Below, in pieces: positions 36,577 to 45,396 of a DNA stretch of 64,000 nt. A program made the position numbers and the translations under genes. The DNA comes from an uncultured Anaerolineales bacterium (GTDB lineage Bacteria > Chloroflexota > Anaerolineae > UBA7937 > JACPPX01): positions 4,789-68,788 of the forward strand of contig CAYGBX010000003.1 of the NCBI GenBank assembly GCA_964348195.1. The letters are read 5' to 3'. The notes beneath the pieces are model-generated. The model ran no database searches, was not told the origin of the DNA, and saw nothing but the letters and a program-made list of their open reading frames with translations. The number at the start of each line of letters is the position of its first letter. The first letter of the stretch is position 1.

Positions 36577-37136
36577 CCCTGTCCTGGCTCTCGGTGTCTG
36601 CCTAGGCGGCTCTGGGTGACAACTCTCCAAGTGTGGCCCGTCAGCGCTGCACGGACGCGATCGCACACCGCCTCGATCGCCTCCCTACCGCCTCGAGGAG
36701 CCTCCGGCCAGTCATCCACCCTAGGTCCCCAATACTCTCGCGGCGCTCCTGGATACCGAGGAACCACGTGCATGTGGAAATGGGGAACCCCATCCCCGAT
36801 TACGAATGCGTAGATGTGTTCTGCCCCTTCCACCTCCATGAGGGCTCGCGCGAGCCTGGACGCCTGCCACGCCACAGCCTGGGATTCCTCCTGGGTGAGG
36901 TCCCCGAGTCCCGGTGCATGGCGCTTCGTCTCAACCATGAGATACCCTAGGTAGGCCGTCTTCTGATTCTCTCGGGTATGAGCGTGACCCGCATAGATCA
37001 GGTCGTCCTGGTAGATCGCGCCCCCCGGGACGATGAAGAGGCCGCGATGCTTCTGGCAGATCACGCAATCCGACGGAAAATCATCCTCTAGTGCCATATC
37101 CCGATCCCGCCCCGGATCGTCCCGTCCCCCGCTCAT
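36573..37136 (-). CDS. HIT-family hydrolase
   Basis: CVICQK N-terminal motif and histidine triad HFHMHVVPR. The start overlaps the upstream stop (ATGA). Confidence 0.8.
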   Translation of the reverse strand: MSGGRDDPGRDRDMALEDDFPSDCVICQKHRGLFIVPGGAIYQDDLIYAGHAHTRENQKTAYLGYLMVETKRHAPGLGDLTQEESQAVAWQASRLARALMEVEGAEHIYAFVIGDGVPHFHMHVVPRYPGAPREYWGPRVDDWPEAPRGGREAIEAVCDRVRAALTGHTWRVVTQSRLGRHREPGQG

Positions 37137-37639
37137 TCCTGGGAGACGTCGGACTCATCCTCGGCGGATGAGCCGAGAGGCTTCTCCATGGTGAAGAGCG
37201 GAGTGCCGAGGAGATCGCGGGGCCCCTGGTCCGTCCGGCGGAAGCCAAACCGCTCGTAAAGTCGGATCGCCCCAGAGAGAAACGGAGTGCTGCTGAGATA
37301 CATTCGCAGCACGCCTGCTTCGAGAGCATGTGATTCCACCTCTTCGAGCAGGCGGCGCCCGATCCCCTGTCCCTGCGCTGAAGGAACTACCGCCATCCCC
37401 CTCACGTACAGTCCGTCCTCTCTCTCCACAGCCGAAGCGGTGCCCACAACTTGGCCCCCCTGTAGGGCGATCCAGATCGGGCCCTCCGTCATTCTGTCCA
37501 CGACCTCTTCGCCCGGAAGCGCGGTCGCCGCGAAGCCTTCGGGAGTGTAGAGGTGTTCGAACTCTGCGAATGCTTCGAACAGAAGCGAGGCGATCGCCTC
37601 AGTGTCCTCGGATGCAGCCCGTCGAATCTCGATGCTCAA
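37133..37639 (-). CDS. GNAT-family N-acetyltransferase
   Basis: 168 aa. VVPSAQGQGIGRRLL motif A. Confidence 0.8.
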   Translation of the reverse strand: MSIEIRRAASEDTEAIASLLFEAFAEFEHLYTPEGFAATALPGEEVVDRMTEGPIWIALQGGQVVGTASAVEREDGLYVRGMAVVPSAQGQGIGRRLLEEVESHALEAGVLRMYLSSTPFLSGAIRLYERFGFRRTDQGPRDLLGTPLFTMEKPLGSSAEDESDVSQE

Positions 37640-37723
37640 GGAGGGTTCACACTCTCAGCTAGTCCCGAGCCATCCCGACGACGGTCTGTCGCAGGAGCAG
37701 ATGGGTCACTATCCAATCCGTCA

Positions 37724-38509
37724 TTACTCCTCGATGGCTCCCCCGATTCGCCGCAGGTGCTCCCTGAAAGTGTAGGAGGGATCCGCGTCTCGCCTGGACA
37801 AGAACTCCTCGAACTTCAGTAGGTCCCGCAGCGTGGTGCCAGTCTCCACCGCCCTTGCCTGACGCCGCTCGGCCTGACGAATAGTCTCCGCAGCAGTAAC
37901 AACCTCGCCGGCCCTGCTCAGCGGCACGAAGAGGACGCCGTCGGCATCGGCAAAGACTACATCGTCCCTCCCCACCGCGAAGTCGCCAAATCGAGCCGCC
38001 TCCAGCGCTTCCGGCTCCCGCTCGTCCAGCCGCTGAGGTCCCGAAGGAATCGCTCCGTAGCTGAAGACGGGAAAACCGATCTGAACGAGATCCGCCGTGT
38101 CTCGGTGGTAGCCCCAAACCACCATCCCAGCCAGTCCGGAGGCCCTGGCCTCAAGCGCGCTGAGATCCCCCACGCACGCCTCATCTCGTCGGCCTCCATT
38201 ATCTATCACCAGGACATCGCCTTCCTCAGCTGACCCCATCGCCTCGAGAATGATGTCCACGCTGCCGTAGTGCCTAACCGGCACGACTTGACCGGCCAGT
38301 TTGCTCCCTGTGACGACTCCTCGAATCCCAGGTGGTGCAGACCGAATGGGCACCCCCTCGCGGAGGCAAGCGTCCGCTACCAGTGGCGTTGACACCTCAG
38401 AGAAGCTCTCACTGAGACTCTGGTTGTCCATTCGATCCTCCATCGCTAGGCAGCCCGCCAAGCGCAGGGAGAACTGTCCAATGGCTCCCGGCCTCGGGCT
38501 GCGAGACAT
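37724..38509 (-). CDS. RraA-family protein (RraA / HMG-aldolase / oxaloacetate decarboxylase-like)
   Basis: DVLVIDNGGRRDEACVGDLSALEARASGLAGMVVWGYHRD is the RraA-family core. The start may be an internal Met. Confidence 0.7.
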   Translation of the reverse strand: MSRSPRPGAIGQFSLRLAGCLAMEDRMDNQSLSESFSEVSTPLVADACLREGVPIRSAPPGIRGVVTGSKLAGQVVPVRHYGSVDIILEAMGSAEEGDVLVIDNGGRRDEACVGDLSALEARASGLAGMVVWGYHRDTADLVQIGFPVFSYGAIPSGPQRLDEREPEALEAARFGDFAVGRDDVVFADADGVLFVPLSRAGEVVTAAETIRQAERRQARAVETGTTLRDLLKFEEFLSRRDADPSYTFREHLRRIGGAIEE

Positions 38510-38558
38510 GGCAGCCGTCTAGCTTGGCACGAAGCTGACATTGAGACTCTGGTTCTCT

Positions 38559-38813
38559 CTATGCCTGCGCGTCGGAGTTGGCTGCCCGAAGAACACCTCT
38601 ACCCAGGAAGCCCGCGGACAAGATGAGCGATCCGGTCACGAAGAAGGTGAGTCTCACCACCCACCACTCGGCCTCTAGATATGGCTCCGTGCCGTGATAG
38701 ATGTCCGTGAGCGCTAGGTAGCTCGCCACCAGCCCGACCAAGGCCAGCACACTCAGGCCCAACGTCACGAACGCGTACCGTCTCAATCCACTCATGAGCT
38801 TCCTCCTTGGCAC
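38559..38813 (-). CDS. Small hypothetical membrane protein
   Basis: 84 aa with two predicted TM segments. No family assignment. Confidence 0.4.
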   Translation of the reverse strand: MPRRKLMSGLRRYAFVTLGLSVLALVGLVASYLALTDIYHGTEPYLEAEWWVVRLTFFVTGSLILSAGFLGRGVLRAANSDAQA

Positions 38814-40226: not shown

Positions 40227-40245
40227 GTTTCCTCCTCCCTGTGCC

Positions 40246-40899
40246 TCACCCCTCCTGCCTCCGAAAGAGTGAAGGCAGGATTCCGGCCCACAGAACGAGC
40301 GCCATCGCAGCGAAACCCAGGATCTCCCCCGGCACCGGTCTCCTGAAGAACTCATCCGGCGGGAAGGAGATCAGCGCGTAGGTGATGATCTGATGAACTG
40401 CCAGCGGGATCGACGCCAGGGCCACACCCCCGAACACGACCCCGTGCACCATGAGGTACCCCCTGTGGAGAAACGACTGCCCGCGCTCCTCTGGTCCCTC
40501 CACGCGATCGCGTAGGGACCAGTGCAACAGGAAAGCAAGGATCCCAATGGCTGCGAACGCTCCACCAGCGTAAAGATCCTGGGTTCGAAGCGACTCATCG
40601 TAGCGGATATCCGACTCCTCCACGAACCGGAAGCTTGTCCGCCCTTCCACCTCTCCCAGATAGCTGAAGGGCGTTCCCAGCGCATAGGCGAGACCGGCCC
40701 TGATCAAGAGACCGCCCCCCGTGAAGAGAACCAGCGCTGCCAGGAACATCATGGCGTAGGCGTAGAACCGGTGCAGGAAGCGTTGCTGCAGGGACTCCGG
40801 TTCCCTCTCGGACCGGATGTACACAATGGCAGCGACCAGGACCGCCACGAATCCCAACATCAAGATCAGCGGAATCAGCACATCAGCGCCTATGGCCAT
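40246..40899 (-). CDS. Hypothetical polytopic membrane protein
   Basis: 217 aa with about six hydrophobic segments. RBS GGAGGAG before the ATG. Confidence 0.5.
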   Translation of the reverse strand: MAIGADVLIPLILMLGFVAVLVAAIVYIRSEREPESLQQRFLHRFYAYAMMFLAALVLFTGGGLLIRAGLAYALGTPFSYLGEVEGRTSFRFVEESDIRYDESLRTQDLYAGGAFAAIGILAFLLHWSLRDRVEGPEERGQSFLHRGYLMVHGVVFGGVALASIPLAVHQIITYALISFPPDEFFRRPVPGEILGFAAMALVLWAGILPSLFRRQEG

Positions 40900-40986
40900 C
40901 TAGCTCCTCCGTAGCCAGCAGGAAGAATCCCCGAACGGGCATGTACTCCGTGCACAGTGCCCCACGTCGCATCCGGGCGGCATTAT

Positions 40987-41664
40987 TCACTCGCTCCCTC
41001 TAACCCAGGCAAAGAACAGCTCAGTCCCAGATACGGCACCGGCGTTCGTCACTTCATTCAATTCAGCCGCGGCTCCAAACAAGGACACGAAGTCCCGGTA
41101 GTCGTCGAAGCCCTCGTCCTGGGCGCTGAACGAGTGGACCATCATCATCGACTGCACGGCATGGAATCTCGGCGCCTCAAGCACCGCCGATGCAGTACGG
41201 TGAAGAAGCTGATATCGGATCGGTCCTATCTCCATGCCCTCCAGTTCAAGAAGGCTCCTGATGAACTTCAACCTCTTCCTCTTGCCTGAAGAGGCGTCAC
41301 TGAGCCAATCCTGCACAGTGGGACCGAAGGGCTCAGCTACCTTTCCCTCGACCGCCATCGAGACTAGCCCCGAATCGGTACGGGCCAGAACCCAGAGATC
41401 GCTCTGGGATGGCGTACGTCCCCCGGGCAGTGCCACTTGATGCTCTGGAATCGCCAGAAGTAGCTCAATACTCGTGAACCTGCCCGATTTGGCCAGAACC
41501 CGACGCACTGATTCAGGGAACCCATCGGCCTCCTGCCAAGCGTGCGCCAGGGCGTGCGCTGAGTATCCAGCCTTCCACTGTCTGTCCGGCTTAGCGAGGA
41601 ATTCCTTCCAGTCGTTCGCTGATGATGCTGGAACATAGACCAAGGGCATGGGATGACCTGCCAA
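40987..41664 (-). CDS. Uncharacterised protein with PD-(D/E)XK-like motif (resembles the family I believe is catalogued as DUF6946)
   Basis: SQSDLWVL-x-...SMAVEGKV (D-x16-E-x-K) and RYQLLHRTAS...MMVHSFS. Fourth gene of the low-GC cassette. Confidence 0.5.
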   Translation of the reverse strand: MAGHPMPLVYVPASSANDWKEFLAKPDRQWKAGYSAHALAHAWQEADGFPESVRRVLAKSGRFTSIELLLAIPEHQVALPGGRTPSQSDLWVLARTDSGLVSMAVEGKVAEPFGPTVQDWLSDASSGKRKRLKFIRSLLELEGMEIGPIRYQLLHRTASAVLEAPRFHAVQSMMMVHSFSAQDEGFDDYRDFVSLFGAAAELNEVTNAGAVSGTELFFAWVRGSE

Positions 41665-41672
41665 CTAGACCG

Positions 41673-42164
41673 CTAGCTGGCCGCCCTCCTCAATCTCGAG
41701 CGCTCAGGAACGCCTTCCATCAGCTCTTCAAGCTTCGATAGCCCGATCGGTCTCTGGCCGTTCTTCTGCATCCTTCCAGCAGCCTCCCAGGCAATCTGGC
41801 CCGGGCCATTGTACGCCTCCTCGAAAGTCCCGTCCGGTTGGATTTGGATCACCAGAAGATGATCGGGGTTGATGGAGATCCCAATGGAGCGGCGCTGCGT
41901 GGCCTTTATCTGAACCAGACGGCCGTCCAGGGCTCTCGCATCATGCCCCTCTTCTGACGCCGGCAATAGCTCCAGCCCGTAGGCGTGGGCGGCGAGTACT
42001 TCTCCGATGCTTCCGACTAGATGACCATCCGGCGTGAATCGCCGGTGAGGGAACAGCTCCTCCAGCTTCGCTACGGTCGAGTAGATCTCCCGAATCAAGG
42101 TCGGAATCTCTTCAATCGCCTCTCTCTCAGCAGAGTAGTTGCCGCCCATCTTTCCACTAGCCAA
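41673..42164 (-). CDS. Uncharacterised protein with PD-(D/E)XK-variant motif (resembles the family I believe is catalogued as DUF6998)
   Basis: FTPDGHLVGSIGEVLAA...GHDARALDGRLVQIKATQ (E...D-x9-Q-x-K) and YNGPG. The start is TTG at 42164 or ATG at 42149. Confidence 0.5.
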   Translation of the reverse strand: MASGKMGGNYSAEREAIEEIPTLIREIYSTVAKLEELFPHRRFTPDGHLVGSIGEVLAAHAYGLELLPASEEGHDARALDGRLVQIKATQRRSIGISINPDHLLVIQIQPDGTFEEAYNGPGQIAWEAAGRMQKNGQRPIGLSKLEELMEGVPERSRLRRAAS

Positions 42165-42175
42165 TCAAGGCGGTC

Positions 42176-42895
42176 TCAGATCAGGTTGGCCTTGTAGTAG
42201 TGTCGCAGGTATTCGAAGTAGCCTCTCTCTTCACTCGATGGCCGGAAGACGCTACTAGTGAAGACCTTATGAAGGACCTCCGCCATGGACGCAACATCGG
42301 GCGCCTGAAATGCGTTCCAGTCCGTATCCGTGGGATGTCCAATGTTCTGCAAGTGGACCTTGTTTCTCAGGGGCCGAAGTTTCTTGAGGGACGCATAGAC
42401 GGAGTGGTCAGACCCCAGAACCCTGTGCCTCTCCGCCTTCTTTAGCATCGCATCGAAGGTCATCTCCTCCAGCTTCGGAGAGGCGAGACGGGTGAGAATG
42501 TGAGAATCAACCTTCGTGATTCTGCCGTCGATTCTCTTCGGGTTACCTGGCGCCACCGCCTTTAGTGCCCACTCCGTCACAGAGTGCACGCCTCTCGCTA
42601 CCAGGAGATAGTGGAGTAGCGATTCAATGATCGCGCACCCCACTACGATGATCGTCTTCCGCGTCTGAGTTCTGAGAACTGAGCTCAGCTTTAGGTCCTT
42701 CAGGCATCGGTCCAAGAATTCGACATGCTGCAGGTTGTAGGCGATGTTCCTGCGCAGGGCGTATGTGTGACGGTAGCCCCGGCCTGAGTAGATGACCTTG
42801 ATTAGAAGGTCATCCAAGCGCTCTATCGGGACAGGGTACCAGCCCGAGCCAGATTCGTTGACTCTAGTCAATCTGGACATTGCGGGACCTACCAC
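42176..42895 (-). CDS. Uncharacterised helical protein with HEPN-like R-x(3-6)-H motif
   Basis: LKKLRPLRNKVHLQN near the C-terminal third. About 50% G+C. Overlaps the upstream ORF by 17-32 nt. Confidence 0.4.
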   Translation of the reverse strand: MVGPAMSRLTRVNESGSGWYPVPIERLDDLLIKVIYSGRGYRHTYALRRNIAYNLQHVEFLDRCLKDLKLSSVLRTQTRKTIIVVGCAIIESLLHYLLVARGVHSVTEWALKAVAPGNPKRIDGRITKVDSHILTRLASPKLEEMTFDAMLKKAERHRVLGSDHSVYASLKKLRPLRNKVHLQNIGHPTDTDWNAFQAPDVASMAEVLHKVFTSSVFRPSSEERGYFEYLRHYYKANLI

Positions 42896-43463
42896 TCTTC
42901 TGGGATTGACCCTTCGCTTCGATTAGATTCCTCAATCTTCCCCATCCTGGATCCAAGGAATCCTCGGGGCGCTCCAATAGTCCTTTCCATCGGTCACCCA
43001 CCTGCTCCTCATCGATCATCCCGAGAAAGGTCTCGAGAGCAGGCTGAAGGGCATTGCCGATACCCGTAAAGTCCCAGCCCTTTCTTTCTCTCTGCGGATA
43101 GACCAGGTGAACGATCTGCTTGTCGACATAAAAGACCAGTTCGTCGTACTCCAAGGCAGAGGGCAGCTCTCCACGCGCTTCGCGCCAGTCGCCTTTCTCC
43201 TGGAAGAAATGCTCAGCAACCATGTCGTCTTGTCGTACGCGTCTCTTCTTTCGCTCCCTCTGTTCCTCGCCATAGAAGAAGTCGACCAGGTTTCTTGAAT
43301 GAATGGCTCCAGCTTCGATGAGCAGCTTCCTGGTCAATTGGTCGTCAACACCCTCTTCGAAGGCCTCCGCGATTCCAGTCAGCATCTGCCACTCATAGAA
43401 GAGCCGGTCAGATGCGCCCCTCAGATCCTCTGCCGTTTTCGACTCCCACCCGGTGTCGGCCAT
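42864..43463 (-). CDS. Uncharacterised helical protein, first gene of the low-GC cassette
   Basis: 199 aa. IHSRNLVDFFY and VDKQIVHLVY motifs. About 48-50% G+C. The ATG lies 15 nt after the dnaK terminator hairpin. Confidence 0.4.
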   Translation of the reverse strand: MADTGWESKTAEDLRGASDRLFYEWQMLTGIAEAFEEGVDDQLTRKLLIEAGAIHSRNLVDFFYGEEQRERKKRRVRQDDMVAEHFFQEKGDWREARGELPSALEYDELVFYVDKQIVHLVYPQRERKGWDFTGIGNALQPALETFLGMIDEEQVGDRWKGLLERPEDSLDPGWGRLRNLIEAKGQSQKSGRSRNVQID

Positions 43464-43477
43464 GGTCTTGTAAGCGA

Positions 43478-43501
43478 AGCGGGGGGCTTGCGCCCCCCGC
43501 T
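43478..43501 (-). terminator. GC-rich hairpin immediately after dnaK
   Basis: agcggggggc / ttgc / gccccccgct, a perfect 10-bp stem starting 3 nt after the dnaK stop. No U-tract. Confidence 0.5.
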
Positions 43502-43503
43502 CG

Positions 43504-45396
43504 TTACTCGTCTACCTCTTTGAATTCGCCTTCGACGGTGCCTTCGTCCTCGGGCGGAGGCTCGCCGCCAGGTTCGCCTCCTCCCGCCGCCGCCTCCTGC
43601 TGGTACATCTCGGCCCCGATCTTCTGCATCGATTCGGAAAGCTCGGACGCCTTCTGGCGGATGAGGTTGATGTCCTGGCCCTTCATAACCTCGCGAACCT
43701 CCGCCACTTTCGATTCGACCTCTGACCGAACCCCATCGGGCACCTTGTCGCCCAGGTCTCCCAGGGTCTTCTCGGCAGCGTAGGCCACGGAGTCTGCCTG
43801 GTTGCGGACCTCGACCTCCTCCTTGCGCTTGGTGTCCTCCGCCTCGTACTTTCTAGCGTCCTCAACCATCTTCTCGACCTCTTCGTCACTGAGGCCGCTC
43901 GAGCCCGTGATGGTGATGTTCTGTTCCTTGCCGGTGGCTTTGTCCTCGGCAGACACGTTGAGGATCCCATTGGCGTCGATGTCGAAGGAGACCTCGATCT
44001 GAGGCATCCCCCGGGGAGCAGGTGGGATCCCGTCCAGGTGGAACCGGCCCAGGGTCTTGTTGTCGCCGGCCATGGGCCGCTCGCCCTGCACCACGTGGAC
44101 CTCGACTGTGGTTTGGCCGTCGGCGGCGGTGGAGAAGATCTGGCTCTTCTTGGTGGGGATGGTGGTATTGCGCTCGATGATTCCCGTGGCCACCCCGCCC
44201 AGGGTCTCGATGGAGAGTGTCAGGGGCGTCACATCGAGCAGGAGGATGTCCTCCACCTCGCCCCCGAGGACCCCAGCCTGGATAGCAGCACCCACTGCCA
44301 CCACCTCGTCGGGGTTGATTCCCTTGTGTGGCTCCCTGCCGAAGAACTCCCCCACCATCTTCTGCACGGCCGGCATACGGGTCTGGCCACCGACCAGGAT
44401 CACTTCGTCGATGTCGGAACCCTGCAGCTTGGCGTCCTCCATAGCCTGCTTCATGGGCGGCATGGTTCGCTCCACCAGGTCTCCCACCAGCTGTTCCAGC
44501 TTGGACCTGGTGAGCCTCATCTGGAGGTGCTTCGGGCCCGAGGCATCCGCAGTGATGAAGGGAAGGTTGATCTCGGTCTCGCCGACGGTGGAGAGCTCCA
44601 CTTTGGCCTTCTCCGCCGCCTCCTTCAGCCTCTGGAGAGCCATCCGATCCTGGCGCAGATCGATTCCGGATTCCTTCCTGTACTCCTCAGCCACCCACTC
44701 GATGACCCTCTGATCGAGGTCGTCCCCGCCCAGGTGGGTGTCCCCGTTGGTGGATCGGACCTCGAACACGCCCTCCCCGATGTCTAGGATGGAGATGTCG
44801 TAGGTGCCGCCGCCCAGGTCGTAGACGGCGACAGTCTCGTCCTCCTTCTTCTCGAGACCGTAGGCCAGGGATGAAGCAGTGGGCTCGTTGATGATGCGGA
44901 GTACCTCCAGACCGGCGATCTTGCCGGCGTCCTTGGTGGCCTGGCGCTGGGAGTCGTTGAAGTAGGCAGGAACGGTGATCACCGCCTGGGTGATCTTTTC
45001 TCCGAGGTAGGCCTCGGCGTCGGCCCGCATCTTCTGAAGGATCATGGCGGAGATCTCCGGAGGCGAGTAGTCCTTGTCGCCCATGCGCACCTGGACATCG
45101 CCGTTGCTGGCCTCGCTCAGCGTGTACGGGACCAGCTCGATATCGTGTTGGACTGTGGGATCCTTGAACCTTCGGCCCATAAACCGCTTGATGGAGAAGA
45201 TGGTGTTCTCGGGGTTGGTGATGGCCTGGCGCTTGGCCACCTGTCCCACCAAGCGCTCGCCGTTCTTGGAGATGGCCACCACCGACGGAGTCAAGCGGTT
45301 CCCCTCGGCGTTGGGGATGACGGTAGGCTCTCCGCCCTCCATCACCGCCATCACCGAGTTGGTGGTACCTAGGTCGATTCCCAGAATCTTCGCCAT
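43504..45396 (-). CDS. dnaK: Molecular chaperone DnaK (Hsp70)
   Basis: [17 protein letters not shown]-type (DLGGGTYD) and full-length Hsp70 blocks. 630 aa. Confidence 0.97.

Follow-up and report, generated by a model that had tools for sequence, protein, structure and literature searches.

The 64-kb window analysed here, from a contig of an uncultured Anaerolineales bacterium (Chloroflexota), carries four consecutive genes, A to D, directly behind dnaK; all four are on the minus strand, and coordinates are window positions throughout. An initial annotation of the sequence had proposed them as a candidate undescribed four-gene system with a role in defence or as a toxin. Our analysis favours another reading: B, C and D are likely a patch of accessory genes, each a module of its own, within a hypervariable dnaK–dnaJ slot, and not one system. 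The patch is probably defensive in role. The single-system proposal did not hold up, as B, C and D each occur solo elsewhere, without a conserved partner.

The components of a multi-gene defence system co-occur and stay adjacent in unrelated genomes; A–D do not. Using tblastn, we found no A, C or D within 10 kb at 20 genome loci with relatives of B, and no conserved neighbour. Relatives of D occupy 85 sampled loci, one of which (L031) holds a C homologue, at a distance of 1 kb rather than next to D; all-against-all clustering of the genes around these loci revealed no conserved neighbour. Neither B nor D was present at any of nine C loci on plasmids and IMG/VR contigs. Plasmid records with B (7), C (14) or D (7) were also retrieved, and none carries two of the three. 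A recount with profile hidden Markov models (HMMs) gave 25 loci with B alone and one with B and C, 84 with D alone and one with C and D, and nine with C alone. All-against-all neighbour clustering again showed no conserved neighbour across the 26 independent B loci. No small antitoxin-like open reading frame (ORF) is conserved beside B, C or D loci, and A occurs in this lineage only. On co-occurrence, assessed by tblastn and then by profile HMMs, we thus reject a four-gene system. The initial annotation had let its proposal depend on homologues co-localising elsewhere; essentially none do.

A smaller module is one alternative. C and D, or B, C and D, could form one system, for instance as a hetero-complex of two nucleases or as a nuclease that senses DNA and is coupled to a HEPN-like RNase effector, with the solo copies being degenerate or differently partnered. 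The common strand, the gaps of 8–23 nt and the 17-nt overlap point this way, as do the C homologue 1 kb from D in L031, the C–D order retained in a related contig (L003, described below), though on the other side of A, and a gene of the DUF6998 family, to which C belongs, directly after B in Nitrosococcus wardiae (CP038033, L121:10001-11442). The last case is the sole B–C adjacency outside the lineage. Its B homologue is 63% identical, and the DUF6998 gene lies 98–122 nt downstream on the same strand, in an IS- and phage-rich island whose other genes include IS630 transposases, Cro/YdaS and Pyr_excise. This DUF6998 protein is highly divergent, with Ser in place of the catalytic Q/E, and L003 is from the same lineage as the window, so its C–D block counts as one evolutionary event. 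As only one of the 85 D loci and one of the 26 B loci has C, none of the nine C loci has B or D, and no plasmid bears two of the three, we regard a true multi-gene module as improbable.

Comparison with close relatives argues for independent cargo in a variable slot. As relatives we used the contigs that carry homologues of A (L001–L003), whose DnaK shares 90% and whose DNA about 82% identity with the window. The genes hrcA–grpE–dnaK–dnaJ form the usual heat-shock operon. L001 has the order hrcA–grpE–dnaK–hairpin–A–RHH–PemK–ABM–PEMT–RF1–dnaJ, with B, C and D missing. In a blastn alignment of the window with L001, homology extends through dnaK and A, ends at 42903 and resumes at 40236; the window-specific segment therefore consists of B, C, D and a DUF5671 gene (Table 1). 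In L002, an unrelated 301-aa gene (258-1163) separates dnaK from A, and three other genes follow A. In L003, a 301-aa weak HNH-like gene, C and D lie between dnaK and A, and the region downstream of A is identical to that of L001. The two 301-aa proteins (L002:258-1163 and L003:105-1010) are equal in length and unrelated in sequence, which indicates fast cargo turnover at the post-dnaK site; that of L003 has a sub-threshold HNH_2 match (E 0.024) and that of L002 no match. None of B, C and D is thus found here in close relatives, which confirms that the cassette is not a conserved core segment. Gene A follows dnaK in L001 without B, C and D, and therefore belongs to the conserved edge of the slot, not to the inserted block.

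Table 1 Features of the variable region between dnaK and dnaJ (window positions)
Feature	Position	Strand	Description
Gene B	42176..42880	-	234 aa from ATG 42880; maximal ORF (239 aa) from GTG 42895
Gene C	41673..42164	-	163 aa; DUF6998 (PF22522); candidate catalytic residues E55, D75, Q85-x-K87
Gene D	40987..41649	-	220 aa from ATG 41649; maximal ORF from TTG 41664; DUF6946 (PF22187)
Variable segment	40237..42902	-	B, C, D and the DUF5671 gene; L001 has an RHH–PemK (MazEF-type) pair there
Gene A	42864..43463	-	199 aa; all-helical, lineage-restricted orphan; conserved slot edge, outside the inserted block
DUF5671 gene	40246..40899	-	217-aa membrane protein; Pfam PF18920 at 1.7e-13; missing from L001
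Hairpin	43479..43500	-	GC-rich and stable, directly 3' of the dnaK stop; dnaK-proximal edge of the variable slot

The slot resembles defence islands and integration hot spots in that core genes, dnaK and dnaJ, bracket cargo that differs among relatives. The cargo itself is also of the kind found in such islands (MazEF, restriction-like nucleases, a weak HNH-like protein and unknowns) and has an atypical composition. Unlike defence islands, the patch spans a mere 2.7 kb or so, lies inside a heat-shock operon, and has no integrase, transfer RNA (tRNA) or attachment (att) repeats in the window.

The coordinates that the initial annotation had given for the four minus-strand ORFs were confirmed, as was the tight packing, with gaps between maximal ORFs of 8 nt (C–D) and 11 nt (B–C) and an overlap of A with B. 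Homologues support a start at ATG 42880 for B and at ATG 41649 for D, with which the A/B overlap is 17 nt. The spacing is then 40 nt for dnaK–A, 11–26 nt for B–C and 8–23 nt for C–D. All four ORFs have protein homologues and are therefore real genes, not chance ORFs. The motifs quoted for B (LRNKVHL), C (GE55...D75...Q85-I-K87) and D (D89...E106-x-K108 and QLLHRTAS) are present and conserved within each family.

The segment is compositionally atypical, as had been suspected; a windowed G+C and tetranucleotide scan bears this out. The G+C content is 54.8% for A, 54.9% for B, 59.4% for C and 58.2% for D, against a window mean of 62.2% (600-nt windows, standard deviation 2.3%). The A+B stretch is the lowest of the 64 kb (55% versus 62.2%), and no 600-nt window of the 64 kb falls below 56% outside 42001-43400. 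The variable segment, at 58.6%, ranks in the lowest 2.4% of windows of its size, and the tetranucleotide deviation reaches its window maximum over 40751-43900. The dip is thus present but smaller than the hand counts of the initial annotation had implied, and the cassette flanks have 60–65% G+C rather than up to 72%. A scan of the window for promoter and terminator signals found none exceeding the shuffled background.

The solo homologues lie in mixed surroundings. Outside the lineage, B, C and D are each found alone in many phyla, be it on chromosomes, plasmids or proviral contigs, and C and D homologues also on IMG/VR contigs. C lies beside Cas3 on a plasmid of Clostridium botulinum, beside a type ISP enzyme on one of Roseomonas, and beside Mob and YefM/YoeB on a small Citrobacter plasmid; B lies near HicAB in Nitrospira. 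Pfam scans of 150 neighbours of D and 84 neighbours of B or C returned recurrent integrases and scattered restriction–modification or defence domains (N6_N4_Mtase, R.HinP1I, Mrr_N, NERD, Methylase_S, ResIII and WYL), with housekeeping genes mixed in. This pattern is consistent with accessory genes of sporadic distribution that are frequently inserted into defence or mobile regions.

A further alternative is selfish mobile-element cargo, in which B, C and D would be addiction- or toxin-like nucleases, phage-derived nucleases or anti-defence genes of no benefit to the host, remnants of recurrent insertions and deletions. A MazEF addiction module occupies the slot in relatives, homologues repeatedly have integrases and transposases nearby, IMG/VR contigs carry C and D, duplicated hairpins flank the L003 insert, and C matches a phage orthologous group at 1e-49. 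Set against this, C has no homologue in 50,697 GenBank phage genomes, and B, C and D lack a conserved antitoxin-like partner ORF. The window and its junctions contain no integrase, transposase, tRNA, Rfam element, att site or meaningful flanking repeat. We consider selfish cargo quite unlikely, and give it the least weight of the three alternatives discussed here.

Gene D had been proposed to encode a PD-(D/E)XK-type nuclease, and this fold assignment is correct, although already published for its family. D is a full-length match to DUF6946 (PF22187; 294.3 bits, E 5.9e-88), exceeding the gathering score. DUF6946 goes back to Durairaj et al. 2023 (Nature; PMC10584680), who assigned it to the PD-(D/E)XK clan CL0236, with EndoMS closest in structure, and described it as a family of putative restriction endonucleases, function unknown, with an (E/D)-Xn-(E/D)XK site. 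The family has at least 4,900 homologues, and E74, D89, E106 and K108 are invariant among 20 diverse members. D is like the family at large, being full-length and retaining the invariant (E/D)-Xn-(E/D)XK residues, and nothing sets it apart. A search of PDB sequences with the D profile found nothing. From its sequence, D is predicted to be a stand-alone, EndoMS-like PD-(D/E)XK putative restriction endonuclease. What is new for DUF6946 is that none of the 85 sampled loci shares a conserved partner gene.

Gene C, likewise proposed as a PD-(D/E)XK-type nuclease, proved to be a full-length member of DUF6998 (PF22522; 174.3 bits, E 1.5e-51, profile positions 2–136 of 136, gathering threshold 27 bits). 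DUF6998 comprises ~1,500 representative clusters, mostly of solo proteins of ~150 aa, and a literature search found no paper mentioning the family. In PADLOC-DB v2, A, B and D have no significant match, and C matches only the single-gene mREase_II models (methyl-directed type II restriction endonuclease; 7e-7, and 2.4e-6 over residues 43–132). A profile of the C family (24 members) matches Eco15I at E 3.2e-4 over just 41 residues. Eco15I belongs to the BisI family, which depends on 5-methylcytosine (m5C), and its experimentally validated active site consists of a helix-1 Glu, 'AD' and 'QIK' (PMC11347163). E55, D75 and Q85-I-K87 of C align with these three elements and are kept across the C family; C therefore has the BisI core of a helix-1 Glu, 'xD' and 'Q-x-K', including the unusual 'QIK' variant of (D/E)XK. 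Like BisI and Eco15I, C is small and stand-alone, without a partner methyltransferase (163 aa, compared with 174 aa for the PDB 8q5m chain). Unlike the BisI family, DUF6998 has a C-terminal half (NGPG...W...NGQR) without counterpart there, and is a separate Pfam family. On this evidence, C would be a stand-alone PD-(D/E)XK nuclease and a distant relative of the BisI/Eco15I enzymes. BisI enzymes cut GCNGC only when several of its cytosines are methylated, which they recognize via methyl-binding pockets.

Rare DUF6998 fusions were also observed, to ADP-ribosylglycohydrolase (P0325, 570 aa), to a weak domain similar to uracil-DNA glycosylase (UDG; P0286) and to DUF5677 (P0341). They hint at a link to modified or ADP-ribosylated DNA, and are possibly artefacts of metagenome gene calling. 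The DUF5677 tail has no similarity to A or B.

Another alternative is that C and D are repair or housekeeping nucleases, D being an EndoMS/NucS-like mismatch or lesion endonuclease and C a nuclease for the repair of damaged or modified bases; both would then be accessory repair genes that the cell can do without. The closest structural relative of D is indeed a mismatch endonuclease, EndoMS, the DUF6998 fusions include ADP-ribosylglycohydrolase and, weakly, a UDG-like domain, and ordinary metabolic genes are common among the neighbours of homologues. Repair genes, by contrast, are usually vertical and syntenic, which the B, C and D families are not: their distribution over phyla is sporadic and their homologues occur on plasmids and proviral contigs. 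The low G+C content, and the MazEF pair that fills the slot in the sister genome L001, also speak against repair. A repair role is unlikely in our view, although we rank it first among the alternatives, ahead of a C–D or B–C(–D) module and of selfish cargo.

The family of gene B comprises at least 137 clusters from Proteobacteria, Nitrospirota, Cyanobacteria, Firmicutes and others, in which none of the 137 homologues has a Pfam domain. In the numbering of the 239-aa maximal ORF, P21, Q56, K80, E91, R177 and H181 are invariant across 23–62% identity, and N178 is nearly so. The predicted structure is a helical bundle with a β insert at residues 106–142 (predicted local distance difference test (pLDDT) 86.8, predicted template modelling score (pTM) 0.80). 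Its best Foldseek match in the PDB has E 1.2, with a HEPN toxin only at rank 28 (E 5.3), and BFVD contains nothing at E ≤ 1e-3. The B profile matched PDB sequences of importins at chance level only, and a Pfam scan at E ≤ 1 of 24 + 8 = 32 members found no recurrent family and no HEPN. The closest homologues (64–76% identical) have unrelated neighbours; one further homologue (P0004) is 99% identical.

The evidence on the HEPN-like character proposed for B is mixed. As described by Anantharaman et al. 2013 (PMC3710099), HEPN domains have an Rx4-6H motif, a polar residue after its Arg, a conserved acidic residue on the second helix, and an insert that separates this helix from the third. Three of the four are present in B, namely E91 in the helix of residues 72–100, the 106–142 insert and the polar N178 after the Arg. 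The fourth is not: the invariant pair R177/H181 reads R-N-K-V-H, which is Rx3H. R174, further upstream, would make it Rx6H, and family members have either R or K there. B thus has three hallmarks in its favour, and against it the Rx3H spacing and the lack of a HEPN profile match or a significant structural match. Like AbiD/F, AbiJ, AbiU2 and HEPN_Cthe2314, B is solo, sporadic, helical and ~230 aa long, with an invariant acidic residue in a long helix and an insert before the motif helix. Unlike the HEPN abortive-infection (Abi) proteins, its invariant spacing is Rx3H, and none of the 32 scanned members matches a HEPN profile. We describe B as HEPN-like and lean slightly towards membership, as a candidate only, on the basis of the sequence and the structure model.

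Two further observations bear on the HEPN assignment. In Vibrio splendidus (L123:9234-9965, L124:4058-4789), a 243-aa protein encoded 35 nt upstream of a B homologue weakly matches HEPN_Cthe2314 and has a canonical Rx4H motif, LRTPRNKVAHQ. This is nearly identical to LRPLRNKVHLQ of B and one residue longer, so that the B pattern L-R-x-x-R-N-K-V-H closely resembles that of a neighbour with a weak HEPN match. In addition, UniRef names a B homologue of Luteimonas notoginsengisoli (P0116) 'HEPN AbiU2-like domain-containing protein'. The name was not reproducible: neither P0116 nor other B members matched any HEPN family, including HEPN_AbiU2, in the Pfam scan at E ≤ 1.

Taken as independent modules, the three genes would each act alone. 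C and D would be stand-alone Mg-dependent PD-(D/E)XK DNA endonucleases, most plausibly of type IV or type IIM-like action, cutting modified or otherwise foreign DNA. A type II restriction–modification system has a cognate methyltransferase; none is encoded among A–D or by the DUF5671 gene, and no conserved methyltransferase neighbour was seen at C or D loci. The PEMT and ICMT genes nearby encode lipid or protein methyltransferases. It is this lack of a partner methyltransferase that suggests a type IV or IIM-like role, since a nuclease without one would be tolerated if it cut only modified or non-self DNA. For C, such a role is the best guess because its core resembles that of the m5C-dependent BisI family. 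B would most plausibly be a single-gene, Abi-style HEPN-like RNase using E91 and R177/H181. The adjacency of B, C and D would then reflect accumulation and exchange of cargo in a recombination-prone slot, as in defence islands.

A bolder, tentative proposal combines two parts. B would represent an unrecognised family of single-gene HEPN-like Abi RNases with a contracted R-N-x-x-H site, and DUF6998 would be a widespread family of solitary modification-dependent restriction endonucleases of the BisI lineage; that both are correct is possible but doubtful. There is also a slim chance that B and DUF6998 form a cooperating two-gene module, hinted at by their adjacency in the window and in Nitrosococcus wardiae.

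Several points weigh against independent defence genes. The tight packing and overlaps suggest co-transcription. The C–D block is intact in L003 at a different sub-site and B is adjacent to C once in Nitrosococcus, and because of these two cases some functional coupling of B with C or of C with D is possible. Many neighbours of the homologues are housekeeping genes, and the tally of defence genes among them is a raw count. For B, the Rx3H spacing lies outside the published HEPN range, and the profile and structure searches gave no match. C resembles BisI in the catalytic core only, over about 41–90 residues, and for this reason its dependence on DNA modification is a guess. For all four families, a defence role is predicted from genomic context and fold.

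The edge of the slot next to dnaK is marked by a hairpin, GCGGGGGGC-GCAA-GCCCCCCGC, with a 9-bp GC stem and a GCAA loop. Its folding energy is -26.6 kcal/mol (z = -5.3 versus shuffles), it is conserved in L001 and L002, and it is probably a terminator or attenuator. The ATG of A lies 15 nt downstream, as the initial annotation had noted. A dispersed REP-like repeat was considered and ruled out, as this is the sole exact copy in the window. In L003, the 22-nt hairpin occurs twice (72-93 and 2257-2278, with loops TTAC and GCAA), and the pair brackets the block of the 301-aa weak HNH-like gene, DUF6998 and DUF6946, with no transposase or integrase visible. Because the two copies flank an insert, this arrangement suggests that the hairpin is a site of cargo insertion or recombination in the lineage.

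Gene A has only three homologues in a database of 5.8 billion proteins, all from one metagenome, and no match in Pfam, NCBIfam, PHROGs or PADLOC. With just four sequences in existence, its structure model is unusable (pLDDT 47.9). The final ~13 residues are unique to the A of the window and run into the inserted DNA. A had been described as HEPN-like, with an 'xVHL' motif echoing that of B, and neither idea withstood comparison. A relationship to B is rejected on hhalign of the family profiles (0.2% probability), and HEPN membership on the four-member alignment, which has no conserved R-x4-6-H, together with the lack of family matches; hhalign with the Vibrio HEPN_Cthe2314-like protein also gave 0.2%. 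Residues 97–141 have marginal profile matches (E 0.03–0.09) to ETS-type winged-helix domains (FLI1 and ERG), with the common pattern YDxL..Y.DK.I...V...R....FDF..IA.ALQP; this may reflect a winged-helix element in A or chance similarity.

A second indel relative to L001 was seen at window positions 36592-38768. It contains an 84-aa membrane ORF and RraA-like, GNAT acetyltransferase and HIT-family genes, and sits between a PEMT paralogue and a small RF-1-domain gene, which abut in L001. With this indel, dnaK and dnaJ are ~7.5 kb apart and the interval has at least two variable sub-sites. A near-identical 4.9-kb contig (L118; GCA_012974985.1, JABAOH010185132.1) carries grpE–dnaK–A–B–C in the same order; its dnaK and B are each split into two ORFs, most likely by assembly frameshifts rather than as pseudogenes.

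The four genes should not be prioritised as a candidate four-gene system, and what remains would not surprise defence-island specialists. It lies mainly in the single families. The B family (~140 clusters) has no Pfam model, a confident predicted fold and a small invariant set of E and R-N-x-x-H. DUF6998 as a BisI-related, methylase-less restriction nuclease is a testable hypothesis. If the proposals for the B family and for DUF6998 were both true, the slot would carry two or three new stand-alone anti-phage genes. More broadly, in Chloroflexota the dnaK–dnaJ interval can be a swap-prone site that hosts accessory genes.

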